Source: Fusobacteriaceae bacterium (GTDB lineage: Bacteria; Fusobacteriota; Fusobacteriia; Fusobacteriales; Fusobacteriaceae). Taken from it: a stretch of 64,000 bases of DNA. How positions within the stretch are numbered: position 1 is the stretch's first letter; every line of letters begins with the position of its first letter. The stretch is from NCBI GenBank assembly GCA_031289425.1, contig JAITPM010000040.1, positions 55,423-119,422 of the forward strand. Reading direction: 5' to 3'. Below are positions 3,956-24,839 of the stretch, piece by piece. The translations under genes were made by a program, and so were the position numbers. The notes under the pieces were generated by a model. It worked only from the letters and a program-made list of their open reading frames with translations. It did not search any database and was not told where the DNA came from.

Positions 3956-4402
3956 ATGAGCAAAAATCAAATTGGCGGAGGAATTACCGCAATTGTTACA
4001 GGTGCACTTATTGCATATGGACCGCAATCACTCTTTAAGATTTGTGATCAAGGTCATCATCATGCAGGTCATAGCGCTTGTTATTGGACAGCGCAGGCTA
4101 CTATTGGTACCGGTATTATTTTAGCAATATTTGGTATTGTTTATTTATTTGCGATAAGTACTCAATTGCGCATTGGACTTAGTGTAGGCTTTGCAGGTGT
4201 TATAGCTCTCACATTTTTGATTGCTAACGTTCTAATCGGAATGGATCTAGACCCAATGATGGCTTGCCGTATAAAAACTTTGCCCGCACTTAATGTGATT
4301 TCGATTATAACTTTCATATTGGTGATAGCAAATGTAATATGGTTATTGAGCCAAAACTCTCAAAGAGGAGTAGGAAATGAAAAACAAATTCTCACTGCTT
4401 AA
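3956..4402 (+). CDS. DUF4418-like small polytopic membrane protein
   Basis: 148 aa with four hydrophobic segments and a His/Cys-rich loop (CDQGHHHAGHSACYW). Sits directly upstream of an FtsX permease/ABC ATPase pair, the usual context for this family. Confidence 0.55.
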   Translation: MSKNQIGGGITAIVTGALIAYGPQSLFKICDQGHHHAGHSACYWTAQATIGTGIILAIFGIVYLFAISTQLRIGLSVGFAGVIALTFLIANVLIGMDLDPMMACRIKTLPALNVISIITFILVIANVIWLLSQNSQRGVGNEKQILTA

Positions 4403-5585: not shown

Positions 5586-6253
5586 TGTTACTTCAAGTAA
5601 AAGATGTAACAAAAATTTATAAACGAGCTGGATTGGAGTTTAAGGCTGTAGATAGTGCCGATTTTGTTGTCGATAGCAGTGAATTTGCAATAATAAACGG
5701 ACAATCAGGAAGTGGAAAAAGTACATTACTAGCTATTATTGCGGGGTTGTTATTTCCAGAATCTGGTAAAGTATTCTTTGAGGATGTGGATATAACCCAA
5801 TTGAATGATAGACAGCTTTCAAGACTGCGTAACGAGAAAATAGGATTTATACCACAGGGGCATTGTTTGCTTGATAATTTCACTGTGATTGACAATGTAT
5901 GTCTACCATATTATTTGAAAAAGTTGAATGGAGACCCCTATAAAGTTGCAATCCAATTGCTCGAACGTATAGGAATAGCCCATCTTGCAAATCAGTATCC
6001 AGTGCAGTTGTCCGGAGGTGAGCTTCGCCGTGCTGCAATAGCCCGTGGCTTGATTAATAGTCCGAAACTTATCATAGCTGATGAGCCTACAAGTGACCTT
6101 GACCCTATCAATTCGGCTAACATTATGACTCTTTTTGAGGAAATTGCTAGATCTGGTTCAGCTGTATTAGTCGTGACTCACGAATTCCAAAAACCTATAG
6201 GTTGCAATAAACACTTAACAATGGAAAATGGAAGAATAAGGAATAAAATTTGA
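5585..6253 (+). CDS. ABC transporter ATP-binding protein (LolD/MacB-type)
   Basis: GQSGSGKSTLL Walker A, LSGGELRRAAIARGL signature, IIADEPTSDLD Walker B. The ATG overlaps the upstream TGA (TGATG). RBS AAGGAGGG. Confidence 0.85.
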   Translation: MLLQVKDVTKIYKRAGLEFKAVDSADFVVDSSEFAIINGQSGSGKSTLLAIIAGLLFPESGKVFFEDVDITQLNDRQLSRLRNEKIGFIPQGHCLLDNFTVIDNVCLPYYLKKLNGDPYKVAIQLLERIGIAHLANQYPVQLSGGELRRAAIARGLINSPKLIIADEPTSDLDPINSANIMTLFEEIARSGSAVLVVTHEFQKPIGCNKHLTMENGRIRNKI

Positions 6254-6429: not shown

Positions 6430-7612
6430 ATGAAATATATTCAAAGAAGCTTGTAAAGAAAATTTCTACATATGAGTGAATTCAGTCAAGCAATTCTAGT
6501 AACTGGTGCAAGACAAGTGGGTAAGACTACAATGCTTAGACACCTTGCACAGGGTACAAATCGGACTTATGTGTCACTGTACAATTCTATGGTTCGAATA
6601 CTTGCCAAAGAAGACCCGGTTTTATTCTTTCAAACATCTAAACCACCAATTATCATTGATGAAATTCAATATGCAACTGAACTTTTTACACAAATTAAGA
6701 TAATTTGCGATAATAGCAAAGAAATAGGACTCTTTTGGCTAATTGCTTCTCAAGGTTATAAAATGATGAAAGGTGTTAGTGAAACTTTGGCTGGCAGGAT
6801 TATTATACTGACTCTTTTTAGTTTGTCAACAGCAGAAAAAACAATACAAGATGGGATGATGAGCTTGGGGATAATCCTCTTGATTTTTCTCATGAAATCC
6901 TCTTGAATCGACAAAGCAAAGCCAATAAAACGGATGTTGAAAATGTGTTTCAAAATATATGGCATGGTGGTATGCCCCAAGCTATCTTAGCTGATAATGA
7001 ACAGAGACAAGAGTATTTTAATTCATATGTAAACACTTTTTTAATGCGTGATGTAGCTGATTTAGGCGGTATAACAGATACTATTCGGTTTGCTAAGTTT
7101 ATCACAGCTTGCGCTGCTCTTATTGCACAACAAGTTAATTATGCAACTCTTGCAGAAACTGCTAATATTTCTCAAGTGATGGCAAGGGAATGGCTTAGAT
7201 TATTAGAGGGTTTGGGGGTTATATACTTATTACAACCATATTTTAATAATACCTTGAAGCGGATTACTAAAACACCGAAACTGTATTTTTGCGATACAGG
7301 CTTGGCTGCATTTTTATCAATGTGGCTAACTCCACAAACTTTATTAAATGGAGCAGCAAGTGGATTTTTTTTGAAAATTATGTTGTACTGGAATTGTTAA
7401 AAAACTATTCTTATTCAAAATCAAAGGTAAATATGATATATTTTAGAGATAGTAACGCAAAAGAAATTGATATTTTTATTGAAGAAAATAATGTAATTCA
7501 TCCCATAGAAATTAAAAAATTAGCTAATCCCAATAAGAGTGAAGTTAAAAAATTTTCCGTGTTAGAAAAATCAAGTGTAGAGCGTGGCAACGGTGGAATA
7601 ATTCGTAAATAG
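6430..7612 (+). pseudogene. Decayed AAA ATPase gene (AAA_14 N-terminal domain plus DUF4143-like C-terminal domain)
   Basis: ATG at 6430 (MKYIQRSL) hits an in-frame TAA at 6454-6456. The same frame then continues as ILVTGARQVGKTT (Walker A). The reading frame is split again near 6900 and near 7290-7400 (ORFs 6472..6906, 6903..7400, 7289..7612). Confidence 0.75.
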
Positions 7613-8578: not shown

Positions 8579-8971
8579 TTAAAATTCAAATTCTTTTTTT
8601 GCTTCTTTAAAAGATTCAATGGTAGCCTTAGCATTTTTCAAATAATAAACGACTGTATTACCATCATTTTCATTATATCTTCCACGTAATGTAGGATATG
8701 CGTCTAACATAGATTTTCTAGCGGCTACTCTGTCGTCTTCCACTAGGGATCCCTCAATACGGATCCAGTAGTCTCCATCAAATGCGGAGATGGAAACCTT
8801 AGGGTTAGCATCTATTTGCTTAGATACGGGTTTTACCTTTCCAGTCTGGATATATAGCTTACCTTCAAATTCATTGATTGTGCCAAAAGGTCTAACTTTT
8901 GGTTGATCATCTTCAACAGTAGCTAAAAAATATACCTTTACTTTTTTCAAAAATTCGACAACTTCTTTCAT
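8579..8971 (-). CDS. Pyridoxamine 5'-phosphate oxidase-family (FMN-binding split barrel) protein
   Basis: 130 aa starting at MKEVVEFLKK, with RBS AGGAGG upstream of the ATG at 8971. YFLATVEDDQPKVRPFG motif. The longer ORF to 9019 has no RBS. Confidence 0.6.
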   Translation of the reverse strand: MKEVVEFLKKVKVYFLATVEDDQPKVRPFGTINEFEGKLYIQTGKVKPVSKQIDANPKVSISAFDGDYWIRIEGSLVEDDRVAARKSMLDAYPTLRGRYNENDGNTVVYYLKNAKATIESFKEAKKEFEF

Positions 8972-9137
8972 TTTTCCTCCTGATTTTAATATAATGATAA
9001 ATAAAAACCTATGGTTCATCTTAATTATACCACATATTTATATGTTGAGATAAAAAATTAAAAAATAATGATAATATTAGGAAACTCCATTATTAAGTTC
9101 ATTTTCATTGATAATATTCCATGTATATTTTAAATTT

Positions 9138-10349: not shown

Positions 10350-11414
10350 CTATCTATGGAATACACGATTTGGAGTGCCATCCCAGTGCAAATCTTTATC
10401 GGCTGCTGGAGCATCTTTTGGTACAAATTGATTTGTATAAATCTCTTCAGGAGTGATATCTTTTTCGTTCCAAAGACCGATCTTAAGCCCTATATCAAAC
10501 CAAATTTTTAGGTATTCAGGGTCAATATTTTTATTAGTATCTTCATAATGTGCAATAACATCTCCTTTTTGAAGCCCTAAAACAGCTGCATTTAAATCAC
10601 CTGCTTCATCAAAGTGATCATTTGTCCAAAGGCGAGCTCGGTACATTGCATTCACAAAACCTTGAGCCACTTCAGGATATTCATTGATAATACGTTCAGC
10701 CAAAGACCTCGCACCAAGTCCGCTGGCAGCACTTTTAAATATGTCATATGCAGTTCCAATTGAACGAACTTCTCCAGTCCTAAGAGTAATTTCTGCATAC
10801 GGCGTATGAGAAGTCGTGACATCAATATCCCCTTGAATCACTGCTTGTTCTTGAGTGCCAGGAGTGGCGAATGTTATAAATTCGACATCATCCTTTGAAA
10901 AACCTGCACTTTCCAGGTAATATTGTACAAATCCGCTTGTACAAACGCTGATTCCCGATACCCCTACTTTTGCACCCTTTAGATCATCCAAAGTCTTTAA
11001 TTTACTGTCTTTTTTAACAAGATAATTAACATGGGGACTTTTAGGTGTATCAATCATACCTGGTTGAATGAGTTTGACTTTTATACCTGCAAGACGAGCT
11101 TGTGCAATATTTGATGGATGTCCGGAATAGGACACATCTATAATGCCTTGCTCAATAGCTTGTAAATCTTTCATACCGGTAGGAAGTGAACCGATAAATT
11201 CGATATTAATACCCTCTTCTTCAAAAAACCCAAGTTCCCATGCCGTAACAAATTCGAGATAATCAACTGGCGGATTAACAGCACGAAGATTAAATAATTT
11301 TTTTTCATCTTTTGTCGGTTTGTTTTCATTTGCACCAATTGCACTTACAGCTAGAAATAATACAAAGATTAGTCCAATAATTATTTTTAATTTAAAATTT
11401 AATATTTTTTTCAT
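10350..11414 (-). CDS. ABC substrate-binding protein, close paralog of 941..2008 (orphan: no adjacent permease or ATPase)
   Basis: Aligns end to end with the 941..2008 product, roughly 80-90% identical by eye (e.g. both end in FVPKDAPAADKDLHWDGTPNRVFH). Start taken at MKKILNF, with RBS AAGGAGG. Confidence 0.8.
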   Translation of the reverse strand: MKKILNFKLKIIIGLIFVLFLAVSAIGANENKPTKDEKKLFNLRAVNPPVDYLEFVTAWELGFFEEEGINIEFIGSLPTGMKDLQAIEQGIIDVSYSGHPSNIAQARLAGIKVKLIQPGMIDTPKSPHVNYLVKKDSKLKTLDDLKGAKVGVSGISVCTSGFVQYYLESAGFSKDDVEFITFATPGTQEQAVIQGDIDVTTSHTPYAEITLRTGEVRSIGTAYDIFKSAASGLGARSLAERIINEYPEVAQGFVNAMYRARLWTNDHFDEAGDLNAAVLGLQKGDVIAHYEDTNKNIDPEYLKIWFDIGLKIGLWNEKDITPEEIYTNQFVPKDAPAADKDLHWDGTPNRVFHR

Positions 11415-11450
11415 TATATTTCCTCCTTTTTTCTCGCCACAAAATGGAAA

Positions 11451-11484
11451 AGGCACCAAACAGTATCAATTACTGTCAGTGCCT
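11451..11484 (-). terminator. Stem-loop between the DcyD-like gene and the binding-protein paralog (internal terminator/attenuator candidate)
   Basis: On the minus strand, AGGCAC...GTGCCT encloses ACAGTA/TACTGT and is followed by TTTTCCATTTT. Confidence 0.4.
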
Positions 11485-11537: not shown

Positions 11538-12527
11538 TTATTTTTCATAAAACGCTTCTGTGAAATTAAAGATAGCTGGATAGCCTCCTGTGTGCAGAAA
11601 CGCAATATCCCTCCCATCATCAAGTTCTCCTTTTTGTAAAAGGTCAAGTAATGCGCTAAATGCCTTGCCGGTGTACACTGGGTCAAGAAGGATTGCTTCA
11701 GTACGCCCGAGTAATTTAATGGCATCAATACCTAATACTGTCGGAATTCCATATTTTTCACCGAAATATTTGTCGTGGATTATTATATCTGATTTTTCAA
11801 AAATAAAATTTCTTCCGATAAATGTAGCCGTCTGAGTCGCAAGATCGGCAATCTTAGGTGCTTGTTCATCATATTTCCGACTAACAGAAACCCCATGGAT
11901 TTTTGCATTAGGTAGAAAAAGTCGTGCACCCACTTCTGCACCGGCCTGAGTACCGCCGGAGCCACTAGCTAGGAATAAGTGCCCAATATCTGCACCGACA
12001 ACCTTGGCTTGTTCAGAAATTTCCTGAATAGAATCTATATAACCTAAGGCGCCTAATGGTGAAGATGCTGCAAATTTTATAACATACGGTTTTTTGCCCT
12101 TTGCGATAAGTTCTGCTGTCAAATTTTCGCTTACGATTGGAAAATCATTCTCATCCTCAACAAAATGTAGATGTGCTCCAAAAATATCATAAATAAATAA
12201 ATTTCCTTGATGAGGAGTATCATCTTCACCGGTCAAAAACAAATGACATTCAAGTCCCAAGTGTACAGCATATGCCAGTGTTTGTCTGCAATGATTGGAC
12301 TGTTTTGCACCGAACGTAATGATAGTATCTGCTCCATTATCAACGGCTTCTTTCATCACATAGTCCAATTTACGGTTTTTGTTGCCACCCAGTCCTATTT
12401 CCGTCAAGTCATCACGTTTTATAAACAGTCGCTGCTTTGCATTAAGAACTTTTCTCAAATTTTTTAATTCTTCCAAACGAGTTGGGTAACTAATCAATTC
12501 TAATCTATCACGAAATCTTTGACTCAT
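11538..12527 (-). CDS. PLP-dependent D-cysteine desulfhydrase / ACC deaminase family enzyme
   Basis: 329 aa. RDDLTEIGLGGNKNRKLDY (PLP lysine context), GAKQSNH, SGSGGTQAG glycine loop. Confidence 0.75.
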   Translation of the reverse strand: MSQRFRDRLELISYPTRLEELKNLRKVLNAKQRLFIKRDDLTEIGLGGNKNRKLDYVMKEAVDNGADTIITFGAKQSNHCRQTLAYAVHLGLECHLFLTGEDDTPHQGNLFIYDIFGAHLHFVEDENDFPIVSENLTAELIAKGKKPYVIKFAASSPLGALGYIDSIQEISEQAKVVGADIGHLFLASGSGGTQAGAEVGARLFLPNAKIHGVSVSRKYDEQAPKIADLATQTATFIGRNFIFEKSDIIIHDKYFGEKYGIPTVLGIDAIKLLGRTEAILLDPVYTGKAFSALLDLLQKGELDDGRDIAFLHTGGYPAIFNFTEAFYEK

Positions 12528-12597: not shown

Positions 12598-13785
12598 TTA
12601 TTTATATATATTTTTCAAAGCCTTCCCCAATCTTTCCAATGATTCCACAACAACCTCAGTGGGAGCAGCTAGATTTATTCTTTCATATCCACTTCCTTCC
12701 GATCCAAATACATATCCTTCATCGGTAAAAAATTCTGCATCTATATGTAAAAATTTTTCCAATTCTGCATTTGATAATCCCAGTGCTCTAAAATCTAACC
12801 ATTGTAAGTATGTACCTTCAATTAAAGGAGATTTTATTTTTGGGAAATTTTTTTCAAAGTATTCTTTCGCTATCTTTTGGTTGGTATCAATAACTTCTAA
12901 TAATTCGCTCAACCATTTTTCTCCTTCATTATAAACTATTTCACATGCTTTAAATCCAAATGTATTGATAGACAATCCTCTTAGGGTAGTCATTTTGTCT
13001 ATGTATTTATCCCTCAATTTTTTATTCTTTATTATAATGTTGGATAATCCTAGCCCTGCCAGATTAAATGTCTTTGAAGGTGCAAAGCATATTATAAGTC
13101 TATCTTCTATTTCTTTACTTACTGTAGCAAAAACAGTATGCTTGTACCCCGGCAATATCAAATCGCAATGTATCTCATCTGATACAATTATTATATCATT
13201 TTTTATAGCTATTTTAGCCAATTTTTCTAGTTCTTCTCGTGTCCATACTCTTCCAACAGGGTTATGGGGACTTGAAAAAAGAAGTATTTTAACTTTTAAA
13301 TCTTTAGTCAATTGGTCAAATTTATCATAATCAATAGTATAATATCCATTTGTTTCTATAAGCGGACAATTTATTACTTTTCTATTATTTCTTTCTATGG
13401 CCATAGAAAACGGATAATAAACCGGTCTGAATATTACGATTCCATCTCCGGGTTCAGAAAAAGTATTTACAGCACCAAAAAATGCAGTCACAACTCCAGG
13501 TGTATTGACAATCCATTCCTTTTCTATTTTGTATCCATAGCGTCTATCGCACCACGATACTACCGTATCCAGAAAAACATCAGTCGCTTTAGTATACCCT
13601 AATACTGTCTCATCAAGATATTTTTTTAATCCATTTACTACTTCTGGGATAGTTTTAAATTCCATATCTGCGACTGAAAGAGGAACAACACCTTCTGATA
13701 CATTTGGGTTCCACTCATACATCAACTCCCATTTGGAAGAACCTTTATTTTTCCTTGATACCCTTGTTTTAAAATCATAACTCAT
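12598..13785 (-). CDS. patB: MalY/PatB-type cystathionine beta-lyase (class I/II aminotransferase fold)
   Basis: MSYDFKTRVSRKNKGSSKWE N-terminus typical of the family. SSPHNPVGRVW, SDEIH, APSKTFNLAGL (PLP lysine). RBS GGAGGTG before the ATG at 13785. Confidence 0.75.
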   Translation of the reverse strand: MSYDFKTRVSRKNKGSSKWELMYEWNPNVSEGVVPLSVADMEFKTIPEVVNGLKKYLDETVLGYTKATDVFLDTVVSWCDRRYGYKIEKEWIVNTPGVVTAFFGAVNTFSEPGDGIVIFRPVYYPFSMAIERNNRKVINCPLIETNGYYTIDYDKFDQLTKDLKVKILLFSSPHNPVGRVWTREELEKLAKIAIKNDIIIVSDEIHCDLILPGYKHTVFATVSKEIEDRLIICFAPSKTFNLAGLGLSNIIIKNKKLRDKYIDKMTTLRGLSINTFGFKACEIVYNEGEKWLSELLEVIDTNQKIAKEYFEKNFPKIKSPLIEGTYLQWLDFRALGLSNAELEKFLHIDAEFFTDEGYVFGSEGSGYERINLAAPTEVVVESLERLGKALKNIYK

Positions 13786-13868
13786 AAAAACACCTCCGAA
13801 ATATTTATCATAGGTCAAATAGATAAGTGAATCTTATCGTATTTATTTGACTTTATTGTTGATATCTA

Positions 13869-15398
13869 CTAACCATTCTCTTTTATATATTTAAATGGAT
13901 CGCCCTCTAAATATTCCTTACGGTATGGGAGAGGGCAATGCTCTGTAATTTTCTTGCAATATTGCCAATTTTTAAGAGCCTTATTAATTCGTCTTGCGAT
14001 TTCAAACACTCCTGAATATCCCATATAATTATTGGCAGGGCCATACAAAGGAAATGTTGCCACACCTTGTTTTACAGAGATATTTCCGGTTCCTGTATGT
14101 CCTATATAAAGGTCAGGATTAAGCTTCTTCACGATATTTATTTGCTCAAATGGTTGTTGTGTTGCAGCATTGTATGGAACGTCATCAATATTCTCTAGAT
14201 TATCAAACAATGGTTCAGAAAATTTATCATAATGATGTCCCTTGAAACCTACAACTTCCATTCCTAAATCCTGTACAACTTCTGCAGTTGCGAGTATTCT
14301 TACTTCCCCTCCGGCAATATAAACTCTTTTTCCTTTTAGTGTTGGTCGAAATTGATCCAATGCTTCATTAATTTCTCTTTCCTCGCTGTCTATAAATTTC
14401 TGTGCGTCTTTCTCAAATCCGAAATGTTCCGCAATTTTAAGTAACCAACGGGAAGTATTTTTTTTGCCCACCGGCATAACATCAATAATATATGGAATTC
14501 CAAAAAGATTGTACACATTCTCAATAAAAAAATCATCATGGGTTCCGCACACACTTACATTTAGTGCAGATTCTGTCATATAACGAAAGTCCTCAGCTGC
14601 AGAATAGCATGGAAGAAAGCGTACATACAGACCGATTGCATTTAACAATCGTTCAAGTTCCAATTCATCCGGACGAGACATTGAGCCGACATTTAGTATA
14701 TTTACAGTGTGTTCATCACGATATTTCTTTTTAAAAATGTAATTTTCATCAGGAATAATATTCGAATCAATTTTGCGTACAGGTGGTCGAACAAGTCCAC
14801 GTAAAATACCATGGTACACATCATCATAGGCCGATGCCATGATTTTTGTTTTAAATCCTGCACAGTGAATCGGAATTAGTATGGCTGCGGTTTCCGATTG
14901 TAGATTATCCAATATATTGTCAACATCATCACCAATAAGAGATGGAACGCAACTTATGGGAACAATTATAGTTTCAGGTCGGAATTCCTTGTCAGCATAG
15001 AGAATCGATTCACGCAATTTCTTCTCTCCTCCGGCAATAACATCAGATTCATCCAGATTTGTGTTGAGCCAAACCACTCCTTCGGCAAGCGGGTCACGCA
15101 GACGTCTGAATGTCTGTGAAGTACCTACAGATCCAATAGTACAAGCTCCGCACCCGATAGGACCGTGCATAATAACCACAGCATTACGAAGCGAATTCAA
15201 CATACCCAAGGATAATGTAAATTGGCAGCCGTGAGTTTGGCTGAATGAGCGATTAGCAGCATTTATACACCCACTTCTTTGAGCGCACCTTATATCATTA
15301 CAAGTTCCAGCAAATGCGATTCCTGTTTCGAGACGACGTTCTCTTACCTCTGGGGCTTTATCACGAAATTTTGGTGGATTTTGATTAAAATTAGCCAT
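13869..15398 (-). CDS. Nitrogenase component 1 alpha-like subunit (NifD/NifE-family oxidoreductase)
   Basis: 509 aa. HGCQFTLSLG, VIMHGPIGCGAC, VPISCVPSLIGDD and IPIHCAGFK cysteine contexts match the NifD/E pattern. RBS GGGAGG. Confidence 0.8.
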   Translation of the reverse strand: MANFNQNPPKFRDKAPEVRERRLETGIAFAGTCNDIRCAQRSGCINAANRSFSQTHGCQFTLSLGMLNSLRNAVVIMHGPIGCGACTIGSVGTSQTFRRLRDPLAEGVVWLNTNLDESDVIAGGEKKLRESILYADKEFRPETIIVPISCVPSLIGDDVDNILDNLQSETAAILIPIHCAGFKTKIMASAYDDVYHGILRGLVRPPVRKIDSNIIPDENYIFKKKYRDEHTVNILNVGSMSRPDELELERLLNAIGLYVRFLPCYSAAEDFRYMTESALNVSVCGTHDDFFIENVYNLFGIPYIIDVMPVGKKNTSRWLLKIAEHFGFEKDAQKFIDSEEREINEALDQFRPTLKGKRVYIAGGEVRILATAEVVQDLGMEVVGFKGHHYDKFSEPLFDNLENIDDVPYNAATQQPFEQINIVKKLNPDLYIGHTGTGNISVKQGVATFPLYGPANNYMGYSGVFEIARRINKALKNWQYCKKITEHCPLPYRKEYLEGDPFKYIKENG

Positions 15399-15404
15399 TT
15401 TTTA

Positions 15405-16739
15405 TTACCTCCCTGAAATTTGGAGCGTTACAAGATCGCTCACTAAATTGAGTCCGCCTGTATATCCGGCGTACCCTTGATTTAACACCACACGACTTGT
15501 AACAGGATAAGTTACTGCAAGAAGCGGGAATCCAAATTTTGTGGATAAATCCCGTTCCAATACACTGCCAATAATAACGGCTGGCCCCAAGGTATCATAA
15601 TATTTTTGATTATTAGATTGTCCCCATCTCTTTTGTATATGTTTTACCAGTGCGGATGCATCTGTATCAAAGACAACTGTCGGAACAGTTGTACTTTCCC
15701 AATTTTCAAATTTTGCAGTTATTATTTCTTTTTCATCATCTGTGATAAAATCTGTAATTTGTGCTACAAGCGGTATCCAGCCAAATTCATCAGATATAAA
15801 CCGTGAAATAGCCGGAACATAATTTGCATCGCCAATTAAAACGGCATACCTACTCAAATCTATATCAAAATAAATGTCAGCAATACGCTCCAAATAGTCA
15901 TAATATCTTATGTCTTCTGATAATATTGTTTTATCCACTATTTTCTTTGGGATTCCGAGTGTATCAGCTACTTTGCATAAAAATTCAGCAGTTTGTGTAG
16001 CACCTACAGGTAGACCTGTAGTTATATAAGGTGTGCTATGTACCTCTTCAAAGATTTTTGCTGACGATATACCGTATGTGTCTGAGAGAATTATATTCAA
16101 CTCAGCCTTGGATGAATTTTTTAAGCTATCAATTGTTTCATTTTCACCAAAGAAAGTATTGACAGTAAGTCCTATTTTTTCCAATAATCGTTTTATCTCA
16201 GCCAGGTTTCCCTTATAAAAGACATCTTGCCCGGGTACAAGTCCGAATACATTTACAACGCCTTTTTGTTTTTTTAGTCCTTTTGTTACAAAATATTTGA
16301 ACAATTCAGTCAATACCATATCGTATCCGACATAGGAATTGCCCTTAAACGAAGGGGTAGAGACTGCTATTACAGGGTATTCATTAAATTCACTTGTTAC
16401 AGATGAGGCATCATCCCCTATCATTTCCACCATACATCCTGTAACAACAACATAGAGATCCCCATCCATGATTTCAATAGTGGTGCGAATCTGTTCCCGT
16501 AACCTGTCCTCTCCTCCAAATACTATTTCTTTTTCCACGACATTTGTGGAACTCCATGATGATCCACCACAATAGCCTCCGCCGATGTATCCGGATCCGG
16601 AATTCGTAGCGTTATATATGTTATATCCACAACCTGTAGACGCATGGATTATAGGGATTGTGCGTGGAAGAGCACGAAGAGTCAATAATGCCCCTCCCAA
16701 TGCACAAGTATATCTTGGTCTATCAACAAATTTACTCAA
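15405..16739 (-). CDS. Nitrogenase component 1 beta-like subunit (NifK/NifN-family oxidoreductase)
   Basis: 444 aa, TTG start with RBS GAGAGGTG. RYTCALGGAL, IIHASTGCGYN and VVVTGCMVEMIGDD cysteine contexts match the NifK/N pattern. Confidence 0.8.
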   Translation of the reverse strand: MSKFVDRPRYTCALGGALLTLRALPRTIPIIHASTGCGYNIYNATNSGSGYIGGGYCGGSSWSSTNVVEKEIVFGGEDRLREQIRTTIEIMDGDLYVVVTGCMVEMIGDDASSVTSEFNEYPVIAVSTPSFKGNSYVGYDMVLTELFKYFVTKGLKKQKGVVNVFGLVPGQDVFYKGNLAEIKRLLEKIGLTVNTFFGENETIDSLKNSSKAELNIILSDTYGISSAKIFEEVHSTPYITTGLPVGATQTAEFLCKVADTLGIPKKIVDKTILSEDIRYYDYLERIADIYFDIDLSRYAVLIGDANYVPAISRFISDEFGWIPLVAQITDFITDDEKEIITAKFENWESTTVPTVVFDTDASALVKHIQKRWGQSNNQKYYDTLGPAVIIGSVLERDLSTKFGFPLLAVTYPVTSRVVLNQGYAGYTGGLNLVSDLVTLQISGR

Positions 16740-16744
16740 TTATA

Positions 16745-17713
16745 TCACCTCTCAATTTCATCAAACAACGGAGTAGATAAATACCTTTCTCCGGTGTCAG
16801 GTAACAATACAACCACATTTTTACCAGAAAATTCTGTTTTCCTTGCAAAATGTGTTGCAGCAAATACAGCAGCGCCGCTAGATATACCGACAAGCAATCC
16901 TTGCTTTTGTGCAAGAAGTTGAGAAGTCAGAAATGCTTCTTCGTTGCGAACTTTGAATATTTCATCCACAACATCAAAGTCAAATACCTTTGGAATAAAA
17001 CCGGCACCTATTCCCTGTATCTTATGTGCACCTGGAGGATTCCCAGATAATACTGCCGAATCATAGGGTTCGACAGCCACTATTTTTATGTTGGGGTTAA
17101 GTTCCTTCAATCTACTCCCAATACCGGTAATAGTTCCGCCTGTACCTACACCACCCACGAATACATCAACCTTGCCGGACGTATCTCGCCAAATTTCTTC
17201 AGCAGTAGTTTCGCGGTGTATTTTTGGATTCACAGGATTATCAAACTGTTGAGGAATAAAAGCATTTGGGATAATTGTTGCTAGTTCTTCTGCCTTACGC
17301 ACAGCACCTTTCATTCCCGAAGCCCCTGGGGTAAGCACAATTTCTGCACCTAATGCAGCGAGTAATTTTCGACGTTCTATACTCATAGTATCCGGCATGG
17401 TAAGGATTATACGATAACCTTTTGCGGCTGCTACGAAAGCAAGTCCAATACCGGTATTACCACTTGTTGGTTCAATTAAAACTGTATCTTTTGCTATTTT
17501 GCCTGTTTTTTCAGCATCTTCAACCATGGCAAGAGCAATTCTGTCTTTTACACTACCAAGGGGGTTGAAATATTCAAGTTTTGCAATTAATCTTGCTCTC
17601 ACAGAAAATTCCCTACCGTAGTCTGTGAGTTCAAGTAAAGGTGTATTTCCGATTAAATCTGTAAGCTTCGCAGCTATTTTTTCATGATTATTTTTAATAT
17701 TATTTTCTTTCAT
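16745..17713 (-). CDS. Cysteine synthase-family PLP enzyme (second CysK/CysM-like copy)
   Basis: [50 protein letters not shown]. 322 aa. Start overlaps the upstream stop (ATGA). Confidence 0.85.
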
Positions 17714-18258
17714 ATTATCTCTCCTAAATATTCCGCTTCTGACAATGCATTGTTCCCAATAATATCATCTTTTTCAAGTAACCCGTCAACTGCAATTACG
17801 CCTCTGTCCTTCCAACCCATAAAATTACCACAATTTTTATAAATATCAACAAGTGGTTTTGCTTTTTTAATATCAGAGTGTGCGGTAATTAAAAGCACAC
17901 TCTCAGAAACTGTATGTCGTTCACGATTTTTGCCACGAGTATATGCGTGTATTCTGTCCCAGGCTATTTTAAGTTGCCCTGATACTCCACCCCAATATAG
18001 CGGAGAAGCAAAGACAATTACATCAGCGGATTCAAGAATAGATGCAATTTCATCAAAATCATCATGGATTACACATTTTGTACCCTCACGGATACATACA
18101 TTGCATCCGATGCAAGGGTGTATGTTTTTAAAAGCAGTTTCGATTTTATGTACAGAGTGACCAGCAGCAATTGCCCCCTTAATAAAGCTGTCGGCAAGTT
18201 TATCGCTGTTTCCGCCTTTTCGTGGACTGCCAGTTAATACAAGTATAGATTTCGACAT
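17710..18258 (-). CDS. Flavodoxin-fold FMN reductase / iron-sulfur flavoprotein-like protein
   Basis: [17 protein letters not shown]-binding N-terminus, compact Cys cluster [23 protein letters not shown] motif. 182 aa. Confidence 0.7.
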
Positions 18259-18325
18259 ATTTGAACCTCCTAAATCCTGATATTCGTCGATTAAATTTTG
18301 TATTCATGCAAACAATCATGTTATA

Positions 18326-18700
18326 TTAATAATTATTATGTTTAGTTTTATTATGATATTTAATCAATTTTTTTATTGCAATGGATAAATCTGATGGTGC
18401 TTCAATTGCAGTAACACCAAAACGCTGGAGATACATGTACGGATGTTTTCCAATCTTTTTCACGAGTAAATATTGTGCACTATCAATTAACTCTGCCAAT
18501 TTTTGATATTGTACAGAATCATTAAAATTTCCACACCCACCATTGCCGCAACTTCCCACATATTCTGATATACTTACCTTTTTTCTGAGTTCATATGTCT
18601 CATCATCATTTACAGTATATACAGATAATTCCTTCGCTTGCCCAAAGTGTGTATCAATATCTACTCCGTTTGATGTTGCAACTGCAACAATAAAGGCCAT
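18326..18700 (-). CDS. NifX/NifB-C-terminal family protein (dinitrogenase FeMo-cofactor-binding domain, PF02579-like)
   Basis: 124 aa. IVAVATSNGVDIDTHFGQAKELSVYTV opening and LLVKKIGKHPYMYLQRFGVTAIE fit the family pattern. RBS GGAGGA. Confidence 0.65.
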   Translation of the reverse strand: MAFIVAVATSNGVDIDTHFGQAKELSVYTVNDDETYELRKKVSISEYVGSCGNGGCGNFNDSVQYQKLAELIDSAQYLLVKKIGKHPYMYLQRFGVTAIEAPSDLSIAIKKLIKYHNKTKHNNY

Positions 18701-18723: not shown

Positions 18724-19881
18724 TTATACTTTATCTGGTATTTCTAAAGCTTGTTCCAAATCATTTATCAAATCGTCTACATGTTCTATCCCTGTAGACA
18801 ACCGCAATGTTGTTTCTAAAATTCCATTCTTTTCTCGTTCTTCTAAAGGTACATCTGAATGTGTCTGTGTGGTAGGGTAAGTTATCAATGTTTCTACTCC
18901 ACCCAAACTTTCTGCAAAACGAATAAGTTTTACGCTTTTTAATACATGCAGGGCAGTTTTTGCACAATCTACTTGAAAAGTAATCATGCTTCCAGACCCA
19001 CGAGATTGATTCTTATTTATTTCATAACCGGGATGATCTTTTAATCCTACATAATATACTTTTGTTACCTTAGGATGATTTATCAACCAGTTGGCAATGG
19101 TGATAGCATTCTTCTGACAAGCTTCCATACGTACAGCAAGAGTTTTTACTCCGCGTAGAACCAACCAACTATCAAAGGGAGCAAGTCCTGAGCCAATAGT
19201 TTTTATCAAAAAACGGAGTTCTTCTGAAAGATCTTTTCTTTTTACTATCAAAAATCCTGCTAGGGTATCATTATGTCCACCCAAAAATTTTGTACCACTA
19301 TGGAGTACGATATCTGCTCCTAAATCTAAAGGATTTTGGAAATATGGAGATAAAAATGTGTTGTCCACAATTAAAAGTAAATTGTGTTTTTTTGCGATTT
19401 CTGCTGTTTTCTGAATATCTGTTATATTCATCATAGGATTTGTAGGAGTTTCAATAAAAATAGCTACCGTTTCCTTTTTAATAAAATCCTCCAGATTGGG
19501 GGTAGATGTATCTAGATAGGTGATGGTCAAGCCATTTTTTATACTGATTTTATCAAAATACCGGATCATTCCGCCATACAAGTCTCTGCTGCTTATAATA
19601 TGCGCTCCAGGCTTAAATAATTCCAGCATAACTGCAATGGCTGCCATACCACTGGAAAAAGCCAGAGCGTCAATCCCATTTTCTAGGGAAGCCACAACTC
19701 TTTCTAATTGTTCTCTTGTAGGATTTTGCTGACGACTATAATCGTAACCGGTGCTTTCTCCAACACCGGGGTGTGCAAAGGTAGCTGTCTGATAAATCGG
19801 AAAGCTGATTGATCCAGTATTATCACACTGTGATGCCAATTGATTATTACTTACACAATTTGTCTCAACACGATATTTCAC
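18724..19881 (-). CDS. Cys/Met-metabolism PLP enzyme (cystathionine beta-lyase / gamma-synthase / gamma-lyase family)
   Basis: PIYQTATF, GYDYSRQQNPTRE, FSSGMAAI, VDNTFLSP, HSGTKFLGGH (PLP lysine). Start set at GTG 19881, preceded by GGGAGG. The ATG at 19917 has no RBS. Confidence 0.85.
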   Translation of the reverse strand: MKYRVETNCVSNNQLASQCDNTGSISFPIYQTATFAHPGVGESTGYDYSRQQNPTREQLERVVASLENGIDALAFSSGMAAIAVMLELFKPGAHIISSRDLYGGMIRYFDKISIKNGLTITYLDTSTPNLEDFIKKETVAIFIETPTNPMMNITDIQKTAEIAKKHNLLLIVDNTFLSPYFQNPLDLGADIVLHSGTKFLGGHNDTLAGFLIVKRKDLSEELRFLIKTIGSGLAPFDSWLVLRGVKTLAVRMEACQKNAITIANWLINHPKVTKVYYVGLKDHPGYEINKNQSRGSGSMITFQVDCAKTALHVLKSVKLIRFAESLGGVETLITYPTTQTHSDVPLEEREKNGILETTLRLSTGIEHVDDLINDLEQALEIPDKV

Positions 19882-19963
19882 AACAACACCTCCCGCAACA
19901 GGATCTCCACCATGCATTTATATTTTTTGTTGCATGTTTCATATCTGACATATTTTTCATCAT
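19865..19963 (-). CDS. Candidate 32-aa Met/Cys-rich leader peptide (MMKNMSDMKHATKNINAWWRSCCGRCCCEISC)
   Basis: RBS GAGGAG lies 8 nt upstream of the ATG at 19963. 4 Met in the first 8 codons and 6 Cys in the last 11. Its TGA (19865-19867) lies 14 nt inside the downstream lyase gene, and the lyase SD (GGGAGG) sits between its Cys codons. Confidence 0.4.
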   Translation of the reverse strand: MMKNMSDMKHATKNINAWWRSCCGRCCCEISC

Positions 19964-20003: not shown

Positions 20004-21206
20004 TCAATTATTAAAAATTCCTAAAAAATCAAGAACAACTCCTGAAAATGTTAAAATTCCAGTTGTTAATGCCTTTTGGTCTACGACAAATTTACTATTA
20101 TGGCTTGGGGTGAATTCTTCTCCTTCACTTCTGCAACCGATTCTGACAAAAACTCCAGGGTATTTATCTTTGATGTAAGAAAAATCTTCGGAACCCATTG
20201 CTGGAACCGTTAAATCTTTTACATGTTCTTTTCCCAGTATCTGACTCATAACGTTTTTTGTCCGCTCTACCCATATTTTATCATTGTAAAGAGGTGGGGG
20301 TCCTTCTTTGAAAAGCACATTGCAGCTGGCTCCAAAAGCTTTAGTCACTCCATTACATAGTTCTGTAATTCGTTTTTGTAGTTTTATTCTAATTTCTTTT
20401 TCTAAAGTTCGTATGGTACCTTTCAAATAAATCCTTTCAGGAATAATATTATAAGCATCACCGGCACTATGAATACTGCACACAGAAACCACTGCCGAAT
20501 CAACAGCACGGACTTCCCTGCTTACTAGATATTGCAATTGAGTAATAATAGAAGCTCCGATTACTATTGGGTCGATTGCTGTATATGAATGTGCTCCATG
20601 GCCGCCTCTACCAATGATTTCGATATCAAAACTATCTGTGCTGGCCAAATTAACGCCTGATTTAATCCCAATATCACCACCATAAAGTTCATTTATGACG
20701 TGTAAAGCCAGAACCCCGTCAATATTATCCAAGGGTACTTCGTCGCTGCTAAAGAGTAATTTAGCTCCTTCCAGGGTTTCTTCTCCCGGCTGAAAAAAGA
20801 AATATATAGTACCTGAGAATAATTTTTTATAATTATTTAATACTGAGATTACTCCCAATAAAATAGCAGTGTGCGCATCATGCCCACAGGCGTGCATGAT
20901 GCCACTATTTTTGCTACATGGAAAATGTTTTGAATCCTCAGTAATGGGAAGGGCATCCATATCCGCACGTAATAAAATACAACTATTTTCTTGCGGTGCT
21001 TCTAATTTTTCTCCCTTCATAACAGCCAAAAGTCCTGTTTTACCTATTTTAATAATTTGGTCGCAAAAGGAATCTTTCAAGAGTATATTTTCTACAAATA
21101 AACTCGTATTAAATTCTTTCATACTCAATTCCGGATTTTCATGGAAATATTTATAATAAGAATATACTTCATTTTCTATATTTTTTACGATTAATTTTAA
21201 GTCCAT
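20004..21206 (-). CDS. M20D-family amidohydrolase (N-acyl-amino-acid deacylase / hippurate hydrolase-like)
   Basis: 400 aa. RADMDALP, HACGHDAHT, PGEE, GRGGHGA motifs. Confidence 0.85.
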   Translation of the reverse strand: MDLKLIVKNIENEVYSYYKYFHENPELSMKEFNTSLFVENILLKDSFCDQIIKIGKTGLLAVMKGEKLEAPQENSCILLRADMDALPITEDSKHFPCSKNSGIMHACGHDAHTAILLGVISVLNNYKKLFSGTIYFFFQPGEETLEGAKLLFSSDEVPLDNIDGVLALHVINELYGGDIGIKSGVNLASTDSFDIEIIGRGGHGAHSYTAIDPIVIGASIITQLQYLVSREVRAVDSAVVSVCSIHSAGDAYNIIPERIYLKGTIRTLEKEIRIKLQKRITELCNGVTKAFGASCNVLFKEGPPPLYNDKIWVERTKNVMSQILGKEHVKDLTVPAMGSEDFSYIKDKYPGVFVRIGCRSEGEEFTPSHNSKFVVDQKALTTGILTFSGVVLDFLGIFNN

Positions 21207-21249: not shown

Positions 21250-22089
21250 CTATTTTAAATAATCAGGTAAAATCCAAATCTTACTTTGAGTTTTAATATA
21301 ATCTTTAAATTCTTGTGATTGGTAAGCTGCAACGATATCTTTTACCCATTGTTCATCTTTATGTTTTGCGTTTACAGTTAAATGTATATAGTTATCAGGC
21401 AAAATATTTGTAGGAGTCTCTCCGATAAGAGCTGTATTAAAATCAACTCTAGAATTATATGCATCAGAGGCTCTTAAAATGATAAAAGCAAAATCAGTTC
21501 TGGTAGGAACAATATTTGCCCCCTTCAATTCGATAATCTCAAGATTATAAGTATTTTCAACAATATCAGACAATTGATATTGAGTTGAATCTACTTCGGG
21601 TTTTAATTTTATCCAGCCAAGTTGGCTCAACAATAGTAAAGAACGAGCTGTGTTGGAAGGATCATTAGGTAGGGCTAATTTATCTCCTTTAGCGATCTTT
21701 GATAGATCTGATTTTGCACCTGGATATATACCTGCAGGAGCAGTAGGAAGTGGAATAATAACAGCCAAGTCTGTCTTTTGAGCTTTATTAATATTAGCAA
21801 TATAAGCTTTATGTGCATCCACATGAAAATCAATCTCGTCTTCACTCAATGCTATTTCTCTTTGAATAGAATCTGTTATTTCCACGGCCGTTAATTTGTA
21901 TCCTTGTTTTTGCAAAATAGGAACAACGCCACCTTCGAGTAAATCACTAGTTGCTGTAGGCAGTCTGCGATATTTGAGCTCAGGTTTGGCAGCAGCACCG
22001 GCACTTACATTGTTACCAAAAGCTGTAAAAGTTACAATAAATAATACTAATAATAATACTACAAAAATACTTTTTTTCCTTAAATTCAT
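21250..22089 (-). CDS. metQ: Methionine ABC transporter substrate-binding protein (NlpA/MetQ family)
   Basis: 279 aa with signal peptide, NlpA-like sequence. Located immediately downstream of metI/metN. Confidence 0.8.
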   Translation of the reverse strand: MNLRKKSIFVVLLLVLFIVTFTAFGNNVSAGAAAKPELKYRRLPTATSDLLEGGVVPILQKQGYKLTAVEITDSIQREIALSEDEIDFHVDAHKAYIANINKAQKTDLAVIIPLPTAPAGIYPGAKSDLSKIAKGDKLALPNDPSNTARSLLLLSQLGWIKLKPEVDSTQYQLSDIVENTYNLEIIELKGANIVPTRTDFAFIILRASDAYNSRVDFNTALIGETPTNILPDNYIHLTVNAKHKDEQWVKDIVAAYQSQEFKDYIKTQSKIWILPDYLK

Positions 22090-22150
22090 TTTGAATCATC
22101 TCCTGTATAATTTTATTATAATAATTTTATGTTGTATTAATATGAATTTA

Positions 22151-22813
22151 CTAGTGTCTGAAACGTCTTGCAAGGGCATTTCCAAAAGATTGAAATATAT
22201 GAACGATAATAATCAATATTAAAACTGTTATCACCATAAGAGGTGTATTTACTCGTTCATGTCCATAGATAATAGCCAAATTCCCTATACCTCCAGCGCC
22301 TATGGCACCTGCCATGGCAGTAGAGCCCAAAAGGCTGATAGTTCCTGTAGTAAGAGCCAATATTAGAGAAGATTTGGCTTCAGGTATTAGAAAATACCAA
22401 ATAATCTGTTTTTTGCTTGCTCCCATAGATTGAGCAGCTTCGATAATACCTTCATCTACTCCCAACATAGAGTTCTCGAATAATCGAGATAAATATGGAG
22501 CCACATTTACAATCAAAGGGATTAAAGCTGCGGTAGTGCCAATCCTTGTTCCTACTATGAATTTTGTAAAAGGCATAATAGCCACTAGCAGGATAATAAA
22601 AGGTGTGCTTCGTACCATATTAACAATTGTATTTAGGAACAAATACAGATATTTTTTTTCCATGAGACCTTTTGGTCTCGTCAAGATTAAGATTATGGAC
22701 AAGAGCATTCCCAGAAGAGCTCCGCCTATTAAAGAAAGAGCTACCATGTAAAGAGTTTGCCTCGCACAAAGAATAAGTGTCGCTCGTGTTACTTTCAGAT
22801 ATTGTTCAATCAT
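22151..22813 (-). CDS. metI: Methionine ABC transporter permease
   Basis: 220 aa, 5-TM permease with an EAA loop (IIEAAQSMGASKKQI). Overlaps the metN stop. Confidence 0.85.
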   Translation of the reverse strand: MIEQYLKVTRATLILCARQTLYMVALSLIGGALLGMLLSIILILTRPKGLMEKKYLYLFLNTIVNMVRSTPFIILLVAIMPFTKFIVGTRIGTTAALIPLIVNVAPYLSRLFENSMLGVDEGIIEAAQSMGASKKQIIWYFLIPEAKSSLILALTTGTISLLGSTAMAGAIGAGGIGNLAIIYGHERVNTPLMVITVLILIIIVHIFQSFGNALARRFRH

Positions 22814-23826
22814 AGAAGCACCTCTTCATATTCATATAGGTTACTTAAATAATCTGTAACCTCTTTTATTTTTCTATCGGAGCCTGTAATCTGTAGAGAA
22901 AAAACAGTCAAAATCGCATTTTGCACCTCATTCACAGAAACGGATAAGGTATTGATTTCTGTATCAAATTTATTTCTCAATTCCGGAACAAAGGTATCGC
23001 ATACATTTCCCCCCATACATCGTACTGTGAGTATTTTTCCGTTTTTTTTCTCACGCAGTCCTATCAAAACAGGGTCAGGAATCTTATTGTCTATAACACT
23101 GTTGACAAAGGTTTTAGTGATGGCTTCCCGGGGTTTGGCAAAAATTTTTTTAACATCACCTATTTCCACAATGCGTCCTTCTTCCATGACGGCCATTTTA
23201 TTACAAAGATTTTGTACAATATTCATTTGATGAGTAATGATTAAGATTGTTACATCTAATTCTTGGTTTATTTTTTTAAGTAATCCTAATATGGATTCTG
23301 TAGTCCTGGGATCCAAGGCACTTGTAGGTTCATCACACAAGAGAATTGTTGGATTGGTCGCTAATGCTCTGGCAATTCCTACCCGTTGTTTTTGTCCTCC
23401 TGATAAATTGGATGGATACACATTGACTTTCTCGGATAGTTCTACAAACTCCAAAATTTCATTTACTTTTTTTTTGATATCTTTCTTGGGTGTTTTATTC
23501 AGAATCAAAGGCATTGCAACATTTTCATAGACGGTTCGGCTGTTCAAAAGATTAAAATTTTGAAAAATCATTGAAATATTCTTTCGTGCCTTGATTAAAT
23601 CATCATTTTTAAGATTATTTATGATTTCATTATTGACAATGACATTGCCGCTGCTAGGTCGTTCCAATGCATTCACCATTCGGATCAAAGTAGATTTTCC
23701 AGCACCACTATAGCCTATTACTCCAAAGATATCTCCCTTTTCTATAGAAAAACTAATATTTGTACATGCATGGACTTTTAGATTATTCGCATCATAAATT
23801 TTCCCAACATTTTCGAAACGTATCAT
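22810..23826 (-). CDS. metN: Methionine ABC transporter ATP-binding protein with C-terminal NIL/ACT-like domain
   Basis: GYSGAGKSTL, LSGGQKQRVGIARAL, LLCDEPTSALD, plus a C-terminal regulatory domain. Start set at MIRFENV, with RBS AGGAG. Confidence 0.85.
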   Translation of the reverse strand: MIRFENVGKIYDANNLKVHACTNISFSIEKGDIFGVIGYSGAGKSTLIRMVNALERPSSGNVIVNNEIINNLKNDDLIKARKNISMIFQNFNLLNSRTVYENVAMPLILNKTPKKDIKKKVNEILEFVELSEKVNVYPSNLSGGQKQRVGIARALATNPTILLCDEPTSALDPRTTESILGLLKKINQELDVTILIITHQMNIVQNLCNKMAVMEEGRIVEIGDVKKIFAKPREAITKTFVNSVIDNKIPDPVLIGLREKKNGKILTVRCMGGNVCDTFVPELRNKFDTEINTLSVSVNEVQNAILTVFSLQITGSDRKIKEVTDYLSNLYEYEEVLL

Positions 23827-23924
23827 TATTTGGCACACTCCTGTTAGAGATAAATAGAGACTTATTTCATTCTGCATTTATCAATAACCTGGGTATTGTT
23901 TTCCCTCCAGGTTAGGGATTCTAG

Positions 23925-24839
23925 TTATTTCACGCTGTATTTATCAATAACTCCCAATTCTCCCAGCAATTTTTCCAGTTTTTTCAAGTATTTACCACGG
24001 TAATCCTCATAAGGGCGGCGCAAATGTCCACCCGGTAAACCAAGTATATTCAGAGCGGCCTTGATAACAATGGGATTAGAAAATGTATATAATTCTTCCA
24101 ACAATGGGAACCATTTGAAATATTCTTTTCGTGATTCTTCCACTATCTCTATACTTGTCCAAGGTCGAGAGTAGAATGCTGATTCTTCCGGAATAATATT
24201 TCCACCGATATTAGCGGTACCTGTACCACCAACAGCCAACGTAGGCAATACGATAGCATAACCAGGGGCATCACAACACATGATTTTTATTTTTCCTTCA
24301 GTCAAACGTTGCACTTGTACCAGTTGTTCTACACTACCTACAGCTTCTTTGTCTACAACAAAATTTTCATGACGGTCAGATAGGAGCTTGATTGTTTGGG
24401 GTGTTACATGAACACCCAATCGTGAAGGGTTATTATAAATCCCACATGGAATGCTAATAGAATTCATACAGGCATCAAAATGCGCAAAAGCTGCAGATTG
24501 TGGTACCAATACATATGGGGGAACAGTGAATATAACACCGTCTGCACCTTGGTATTCATGATATTGTGCTAGGTCAATACTGGCTTCTGTTGTTAGTGCT
24601 GCCGCTGAAAAGAAAACCGGTATTCGCTTGTTAACAATTTTAAGAACTTGGCGTACAATTTCTTTTTTTTCTTCCACCGAAAGTAGCGTGGTTTCTCCGG
24701 CCGAGCCGAGAATAAATAATTGCGAAGTACCGTATTTAATTTGCCTCTCAATCAAAACAGCAAAAGCATCGAAATCAATTTTGTCCTCCTTTGTAAATGG
24801 TGTTGGCATGGCGACCCATGAGCCGGTTAAATTTGTCAT
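23925..24839 (-). CDS. DapA/NanA-family class I (Schiff-base) aldolase
   Basis: 304 aa. MPTPF, GSAGETTLLSVEEKKE, YNNP, VVDKEA (catalytic Lys context). RBS AAGGAGG. Confidence 0.8.
   Translation of the reverse strand: MTNLTGSWVAMPTPFTKEDKIDFDAFAVLIERQIKYGTSQLFILGSAGETTLLSVEEKKEIVRQVLKIVNKRIPVFFSAAALTTEASIDLAQYHEYQGADGVIFTVPPYVLVPQSAAFAHFDACMNSISIPCGIYNNPSRLGVHVTPQTIKLLSDRHENFVVDKEAVGSVEQLVQVQRLTEGKIKIMCCDAPGYAIVLPTLAVGGTGTANIGGNIIPEESAFYSRPWTSIEIVEESRKEYFKWFPLLEELYTFSNPIVIKAALNILGLPGGHLRRPYEDYRGKYLKKLEKLLGELGVIDKYSVK

Follow-up and report, generated by a model that had tools for sequence, protein, structure and literature searches.

A predicted Group IV nitrogenase-like K-D pair coupled to cysteine synthase in a sulfur-salvage gene island of a Fusobacteriaceae bacterium

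The DNA analyzed here (the window) is a 64,000 nucleotide (64-kb) stretch of contig JAITPM010000040.1 from a termite-gut-type Fusobacteriaceae metagenome-assembled genome (MAG), in which two adjacent genes encode the nitrogenase-like (NFL) proteins NflK and NflD, the latter annotated as LBT51_03425. We consider it probable (roughly 0.6 for the mechanism as a whole) that this pair forms the catalytic half of a nitrogenase-like sulfur-salvage reductase from an uncharacterised, CysK-coupled part of Group IV. The reductase would be served in trans by a NifH-type Fe protein and NifB, with a NifX-like protein (X) as carrier, an Fe-S flavoprotein (Flv) as electron donor and a dedicated O-acetylserine sulfhydrylase (CysK) for capture. 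A first-pass annotation of the same DNA had proposed a sulfur-salvage enzyme related in logic to methylthio-alkane reductase (Mar) of Rhodospirillum rubrum, wired to Flv in place of NifH. The relationship was upheld, in that the pair falls into Group IV with MarDK as its closest solved relative; the independence from NifH was not.

Cluster ligands and classification of NflD and NflK

Both proteins matched PF00148 over their full length, with scores (Table 1) above the Pfam gathering cutoff of 28.6 bits. NflD and NflK are thus predicted members of the nitrogenase component-1 family, and the earlier call of two nitrogenase-like subunits was borne out. The best solved match in each case was the corresponding subunit of R. 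rubrum Mar (PDB 9D9U/9FMG), with 196 bits for NflD to MarD and 246 bits for NflK to MarK, NifD and NifK each giving 80-90 bits. Transcription runs through NflK first and NflD second, the reverse of the D-then-K order assumed in the first-pass annotation.

The list of Mar ligands was taken from a 2026 Chem Rev review (PMC13474568) and the residues were mapped by explicit pairwise alignment. The P-cluster cysteines C58, C83 and C150 of NflD aligned to C66, C91 and C158 of MarD, and C12, C37 and C102 of NflK aligned to C32, C56 and C121 of MarK, so that all six cysteine contexts named beforehand fell on Mar ligands. A cofactor cysteine had also been expected in the D-like protein; it exists, but not at the proposed site IPIHCAGF, whose cysteine (C179) corresponds to the non-ligand position C187 of MarD. 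The cofactor cysteine is instead C284 (NVSVCGTHD), equivalent to MarD C270 and NifD C275, and the cofactor histidine is H434 (IGHTG), equivalent to MarD H429. All P-cluster and L-like-cluster ligand residues of the two proteins were invariant across 14 diverse homologues. NflD and NflK are therefore predicted to retain the full ligand sets of a P-cluster and of an L-type [Fe8S9C]-like cluster, the two clusters that make up the cofactor set of Mar, and on this ligand set they belong with the Group IV NFL proteins.

Identity of the pair to Mar was about 29-34%, that of NflD to MarD being about 29-33%. Within the pocket set H194/W195/S196/F199/F374/H375 of MarD, H375 alone was kept in NflD, the others being replaced (H194 by I, W195 by M, S196 by A, F199 by Y and F374 by H), and R428 was replaced by G. 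The M, A and Y found at the W195, S196 and F199 positions were invariant in the 14-homologue alignment. MarD W195 is essential for Mar activity (PMC13474568). Membership of Mar was ruled out by the identity level together with the replaced pocket residues, this tryptophan included; NflD is not a Mar orthologue and presumably acts on a different substrate.

The remaining classes were rejected on NCBIfam scores. For NifDK/NifEN these were 164 bits against a cutoff of 505 (nifE), 126 against 654 (nifD) and 98 against 427 (nifK). When equivalents of NifD Q191, H195 and H442 were sought, the loop position occupied by H442 in NifD and H450 in MarD was found to be N456 in NflD. For NflD, CfbD was rejected with 51 bits for methan_mark_13 against a cutoff of 268, and the dark-operative protochlorophyllide and chlorophyllide oxidoreductases with 75 against 490 for BchB, 55 against 420 for BchN and 35 against 425 for BchY.

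The CysK-coupled K-D clade and its loci

When one genome from each GTDB species was scanned, 259 relatives were returned, among them gut and rumen anaerobes (Faecalicatena, Selenomonas, Clostridium kluyveri) as well as termite Treponema, and 80 loci were retrieved; related loci carry the prefix L below. More than 500 homologues of NflD were found, including proteins of C. kluyveri, Sporobacter termitidis, Oxobacter pfennigii, Anaerosinus/Massilibacillus and many Treponema and Synergistaceae MAGs. The hallmarks of the group are the K-then-D order and an adjacent CysK, and in a neighbour-joining tree, which carries no support values, it formed its own long-branched cluster. Because NflD is so distant from MarD, while many of the same loci hold a second, D-then-K pair that is 36-70% identical to MarD, the window pair belongs to a separate clade, and sequence comparison assigns it to a widespread, uncharacterised and divergent branch of Group IV distinct from Mar.

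Partner genes were counted on a tblastn map of the DNA of the loci, and those in which K-D had 6 kb or more on each side were termed well-flanked (n=36, window included). CysK was present in 36/36 of these and was the sole invariant neighbour, as befits the dedicated CysK proposed in the first-pass annotation; it adjoined the K-D pair, or was separated from it by NifB only, in 65 of 84 family loci. A NifH homologue was found in 29 of the 36 well-flanked loci and a NifB-core radical-SAM protein (approx. 297 aa, with CxxxCxxC and CNIQCxFC motifs) in 26. Where family loci had NifH it lay within 3.7 kb of K-D in 54 of 55 cases, with a maximum distance of 7.4 kb. The usual layouts were CysK-NifB-K-D-(X)-NifH and (NifB)-X-NifH-CysK-K-D, often followed by an SsuABC-like transporter, and X-type genes recurred. 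Besides CysK, the gene neighbourhood of the clade thus usually includes a NifH-type ATPase and a NifB-core radical-SAM enzyme, together with an SsuABC-like importer and a NifX-like carrier. In the nearest relatives, two Synergistaceae loci (L002 and L004) whose D protein is 69% identical to NflD, the order was NifB-NifH-CysK-K-D. Seven well-flanked loci were without NifH (the window, L017, L024, L044, L046, L072 and L076), and these were scattered over the neighbour-joining tree and did not form one clade.

Two types of NifH were seen in the clade, Ha with 64-71% and Hb with 44-52% identity to Azotobacter vinelandii NifH, the reported value for MarH being 47%. Ha was usually encoded upstream as X-NifH-CysK (L031-L034, L063-L066) and Hb usually just after D (L010-L062), with both types together in some loci (L003 and L009); Ha-type proteins were present in non-diazotrophs such as Selenomonas.

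A second, Mar-like pair in D-then-K order (31-70% identical to MarD) adjoined the CysK-K-D pair in many genomes (L002, L004, L009, L024, L032, L049, L055, L060, L066, L069, L074, L076, L078, L089, L095). Such loci often had a single NifH between the two pairs, which suggests a shared Fe protein. Four D/K pairs stood in a row in L024 (Ca. Clostridium eludens), with no NifH within 10 kb.

Absence of NifH and NifB from the window

NifH was sought over the 64 kb by a six-frame motif scan and by tblastn with A. vinelandii NifH and the NifH of L096. Neither method found a NifH (PF00142) in the window, in agreement with the first-pass annotation, and tblastn with the family NifB-core protein found no NifB-type radical-SAM gene there. 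Both NifH searches returned only a 235-aa ParA/AAA_31 protein (61920-62627, minus strand) with the one NifH-like P-loop of the window, which fell below the NifH Pfam cutoff and was rejected as a candidate. It adjoins a 695-aa open reading frame (ORF; 59815-61902, minus strand) in the AT-rich part of the window.

In L096, L089 and L095 the nifH gene occupies the position that in the window is the spacer between X and Flv. A tblastn search of this 67-nt spacer for a nifH remnant found none.

The flavoprotein, the NifX-like protein and CysK

The first-pass annotation had placed a cysteine synthase paralog, an Fe-S flavoprotein and a 124-aa NifX/NifB-C-type protein upstream of the pair, and each was confirmed. 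CysK satisfied the cysteine synthase A model TIGR01139. X matched PF02579, its best NCBIfam match was the C-terminal region of NifB, and with the nifX equivalog TIGR02663 it scored 27.8 bits against a cutoff of 112. Flv has the FMN_red fold and the cysteine motif C49-X2-C52-X2-C55-X5-C61, and this CX2CX2CX5C motif was kept in 108/108 homologues. A PDB sequence search with Flv gave Bacillus subtilis 1RLI and 'Cd1' 7D38 as best matches, with no Isf structure among the matches.

Orthologues of Flv with 54-62% identity occurred in NFL clusters, in four of them in the same operon as NifH (L089, L090, L095 and L096). The order in L096 was X-NifH-Flv-CysK-K, that is, the order of the window with nifH added between X and Flv, and identity to the window was 62% for Flv, 79% for CysK and 83% for the N-terminus of K and only 34% for X. 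In L089 and L095 the arrangement was substrate-binding protein-ATPase-permease-D-K-X-NifH-Flv, convergent with CysK-K-D, and L090 showed NifH-Flv. Flv stood beside D/K with no NifH in view in L078 and L081 (both Treponema and both short contigs) and in L097. Orthologues with 54% identity in L093, L094 and L098 followed Opp/M20 genes with no NFL genes nearby, and homologues of about 50% identity were found in unrelated redox contexts, e.g., in Pelosinus. The seven loci returned by a metagenome scan with Flv were all distant (34-62% identity, with only 52 residues covered at 62%), and none of them lay near NFL genes. In L097 a 58-aa ORF (259-435) lies between CysK and Flv, in the arrangement CysK-58aa-Flv convergent with D-K.

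As orthologues of Flv share operons with NifH, Flv appears to accompany NifH and not to substitute for it. On the simplest reading Flv serves an H-dependent system as an accessory, whether by donating electrons to the Fe protein or by a protective role, and nifH was lost from, or never joined, the copy of the operon in the window. The system wired to Flv without NifH that had been proposed is not supported by these data, given the counts of NifH and NifB-core genes above and the Flv orthologues in NifH operons.

Proposed function and alternative explanations

Gene content, ligand conservation and family synteny come directly from the data, and the chemistry is what we infer from them. A NifH-type Fe protein and NifB, encoded outside the 64-kb window, would supply electrons and cofactor, and the NifX-like protein would shuttle the cofactor. 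Flv would pass low-potential electrons to the Fe protein, or would shield an oxygen-labile system. A small organosulfur compound would be imported and one of its C-S bonds cleaved reductively by NflDK, CysK would capture the freed sulfide or thiol on O-acetylserine, and the neighbouring C-S lyases and MetNIQ would link the product to the cysteine and methionine pools. Since the relatives nearly always carry NifH and NifB genes, the window pair is most likely an ordinary two-part enzyme with its partners elsewhere in the genome, and published D/K pairs with distant NifH and NifB provide a precedent for partners in trans. Its NifH-less appearance would most likely come down to where the partner genes lie, and split loci of this kind are already on record for NFL systems.

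Several points weigh against this assignment. NflK-NflD has no NifH or NifB within 13.8 kb to one side and 45 kb to the other, a greater distance than in any related locus examined. The lack of a Fusobacteriaceae protein among the top 120 matches of a NifH protein search (at least 81% identical) may also count against it, within the scope of those 120. The nitrogenase NifH of R. rubrum is no substitute for MarH (PMC13474568), so a generic nif operon might not suffice. Both the substrate and the product of NflDK are, moreover, ones that we purely infer.

One alternative is an orphaned or partly decayed acquisition, in which the island was gained by transfer or rearranged without nifH and nifB, leaving NflKD inactive or transient and CysK and the lyases working. 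The nifH gene is missing precisely from the interval between X and Flv that it occupies in relatives, and the contrast between X (34%) and Flv, CysK and K (62-83%) in identity to L096 suggests a recombination joint near the X|Flv boundary. Base composition also hints at a foreign origin, as the genes of the sulfur island (1-25 kb) averaged 36.7% GC and 25.8% GC at third codon positions compared with 26.9% and 17.1% for the genes at 34-64 kb, the region at 46-55 kb having 21-27% GC. This step, between 1-30000 and 34000-64000 of the window, is compatible with horizontal acquisition of the sulfur island, although the AT-rich part may be the foreign one and the difference may stem from gene type instead of transfer. 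At columns at least 97% conserved in the family NflD deviated at 6/118 and NflK at 4/89, which ranked NflD 4th of 80 and NflK 6th of 69 in such deviations; however, most of the exchanges were conservative (Y to F, L to I/V/F, W to Y), and no ligand was hit. Both ORFs are intact with tight operon spacing, and neither a metal ligand (eight in all) nor a family-invariant residue has been lost. The two genes look functional as far as their sequence can tell, and we regard the orphan explanation as unlikely.

A distinctly unlikely alternative is a variant independent of NifH, in which Flv or a low-potential ferredoxin would reduce the P-cluster directly and no ATP would be needed. It would account for 64 kb without NifH and for the X-Flv modules that lack an intervening NifH beside NFL D/K in Treponema L078 and L081, although these are only short contigs. 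L-cluster-bound NifEN and NifB reduce N2 without NifH when a ferredoxin serves as donor, in the artificial setting of E. coli (PMC13245594). Against it stand the Flv orthologues in the NifH operons of L089, L090, L095 and L096, those of 54% identity away from NFL genes and the homologues of about 50% identity in unrelated redox contexts, as well as the position of the window in the neighbour-joining tree, nested among H-bearing relatives. The retained L-cluster ligands would still demand NifB, which is absent from the window too, so some supply in trans is required anyway. That the Fusobacteriaceae lineage, and perhaps the Treponema of L078 and L081, dropped the ATP-dependent Fe protein, with Flv reducing K/D directly and the cofactor arriving via the NifX-like protein, we hold to be highly doubtful; if true, the nitrogenase superfamily would gain in such a NifH-free, Flv-driven K/D its first natural member that acts in sulfur metabolism as a single component and without ATP.

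A chimeric or collapsed contig hiding a true cluster with nifH (and nifB) is very improbable, for although the source is a MAG and the only independent contigs recovered (L001 and L100, run SRR14710897) stop short of spanning the X/Flv junction, this junction is a clean 67-nt spacer with the ribosome-binding site of Flv, CysK-K-D was reproduced in the independent Logan assembly, and an exact one-gene deletion respecting operon structure is unlikely for an assembler.

Comparison with known systems

The closest solved relative of both subunits is Mar (MarBHDK, Group IV-C). The two systems share all six cysteines of the P-cluster and the Cys/His ligands of the L-like cluster, a sulfur-salvage setting with SsuA-type transport genes nearby, and an accompanying pyridoxal phosphate (PLP) enzyme that captures thiol or sulfide, MetY for Mar and CysK for the window pair. 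They differ in that the window pair is ordered K-then-D, is coupled to CysK and has no B or H in the window, and in that true Mar-like D-then-K pairs sit as second systems in related loci.

According to the 2026 review every NFL system, whether characterised or known from genomes, has two components, and most Group IV clades are without assigned function save for a "tantalizing association" with sulfur genes (PMC13474568). The background statement of the first-pass annotation that only H-linked systems are known is outdated, as D/K pairs without adjacent NifH have been published (PMC13067680, PMC9147875, bioRxiv 10.64898/2026.08.20.746119). For Pillotina corrugata, a termite-gut spirochete, a genome paper describes in one sentence an operon of nifK, nifD and a cysteine synthase gene, with nifB and nifH encoded at distant loci, and suggests a role in sulfur metabolism (PMC13067680). 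Compared by gene content, this operon as described there resembles the window in its K/D genes with cysteine synthase, its termite-gut host and its distant nifB and nifH, and differs in its neighbours, which are leucine-rich-repeat proteins and not X, Flv and lyases; by analogy, the Pillotina case would essentially match the situation of the window.

Heliophilum fasciatum has five NflDK pairs (NflDK1-5) and a single nifH-like gene (PMC9147875), and in Rhodopseudomonas palustris marKD2 lies 4.5 kb from marHB2 and nflDK3 is without its own H (bioRxiv 10.64898/2026.08.20.746119). These are D/K pairs that stand apart from, or share, one H and B, all of them are induced by sulfur limitation, and marKD2 has the K-then-D order of the window. 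Unlike the window pair, the proteobacterial pairs are 52-65% identical to Mar1 and far closer to Mar, and in those systems H and B lie within 4.5-9 kb, as opposed to none within 64 kb here.

Isethionate reductase (IsrBHDK, Group IV-F) provides another case of anaerobic sulfur assimilation by a nitrogenase-like enzyme with an SsuABC-type importer. IsrDK is without the conserved P-cluster and L-cluster ligands and IsrB is an unrelated radical-SAM protein (PMC13474568), whereas the window proteins keep all ligands and their family uses a NifB-core enzyme. The reaction of the CysK-coupled K-D clade, once found, would add a route of anaerobic organosulfur assimilation beside Mar and Isr.

Flv resembles Isf in its FMN_red fold and compact cysteine motif and differs in being embedded in an NFL/CysK operon. 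In the Isf of Methanosarcina thermophila an FMN_red/flavodoxin-like fold is combined with a compact CX2CX2CX4-7C motif that holds a [4Fe-4S] cluster. The Fe-S flavoprotein of the window and its relatives is a candidate partner dedicated to an NFL Fe protein; for Mar, no physiological electron donor is known yet (PMC13474568).

Gene map of the window and further observations

The NflK-NflD pair sits within a cysteine, methionine and organosulfur salvage island (Table 1). The genes around it are all on the minus strand, with spacings from a 4-nt overlap to a 118-nt gap; CysK and Flv overlap by 4 nt and CysK ends 5 nt upstream of NflK. The sulfur-related flanks listed in the first-pass annotation were all recovered, namely the Cys/Met PLP enzyme, MetNIQ, the PatB C-S lyase, the D-cysteine desulfhydrase/CuyA-family enzyme and the SsuA-like protein, and an M20 amidohydrolase was found in addition.

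Table 1. Features of the sulfur-salvage island and its surroundings (positions in the window; Flv, Fe-S flavoprotein; X, NifX-like protein)
Feature	Position	Strand	Evidence or remark
DapA-family protein	23925-24839	-	transcribed ahead of MetN/MetI/MetQ
MetN, MetI, MetQ methionine-type ATP-binding cassette (ABC) transporter (transcription order)	21250-23877	-	ORF translations, BLAST labels, first-pass description
M20 amidohydrolase	20004-21206	-	PF01546/PF07687
Cys/Met-metabolism PLP enzyme (cystathionine gamma-lyase/synthase family)	18724-19917	-	PF01053, 472 bits
X, NifX / NifB-C-terminal-type cofactor-binding protein, 124 aa	18326-18700	-	PF02579, 37.9 bits vs cutoff 26.3
X/Flv spacer, 67 nt, AT-rich, AGGAGG ribosome-binding site at end	18259-18325	-	sequence reading
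Flv, 182 aa, FMN_red fold, Isf-like by motif	17710-18258	-	PF03358, 72 bits
Dedicated CysK (O-acetylserine sulfhydrylase)	16745-17713	-	TIGR01139, 448 bits vs cutoff 351
NflK, NifK/MarK-like subunit, 444 aa	15405-16739	-	PF00148, 237 bits
NflD, NifD/MarD-like predicted catalytic subunit, 509 aa	13869-15398	-	PF00148, 229 bits
PatB-family C-S beta-lyase	12598-13818	-	TIGR04350, 402 bits vs cutoff 340
D-cysteine desulfhydrase / CuyA-family PLP enzyme	11538-12527	-	PF00291; CuyA 327 and D-cysteine desulfhydrase 280 bits, both below cutoffs (NCBIfam)
SsuA/NMT1-type substrate-binding protein	10350-11459	-	PF09084; TIGR01728 89 bits, below cutoff
Enolase-superfamily protein	after the SsuA-like binding protein in transcription order	-	
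PNPOx-like FMN-binding protein, last gene of operon	8579-9019	-	
Second sulfur module: partial ABC ATPase, SsuA-like binding protein, permease, second CysK	3-3908	+	Pfam, tblastn

Within the second sulfur module the SsuA-like, permease and CysK part covers 941-3908 (plus strand), and its CysK was 61% identical to the operon CysK by tblastn. No riboswitch (S-box, T-box or other) was reported by Rfam, at either gathering or E-value thresholds, for the operon or the DNA upstream of it, and a promoter and terminator scan gave counts no better than those of shuffled sequence.

A homologue of the PNPOx-like protein lies immediately upstream of K-D in the Oscillospiraceae loci L064 and L065 on an ORF-based map, and the protein may be a second recurrent flavin partner. 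Directly after the second CysK, at 3956-6253 (plus strand), a DUF4418 membrane protein, a MacB/FtsX-type permease and an ABC ATPase form an export-type ABC system within the sulfur island. It is followed at 6472-7400 (plus strand) by an AAA_14 / DUF4143 ATPase encoded in two ORFs of 144 and 165 aa that overlap, probably a frameshifted gene; the same split was also present in the independent contig L100.

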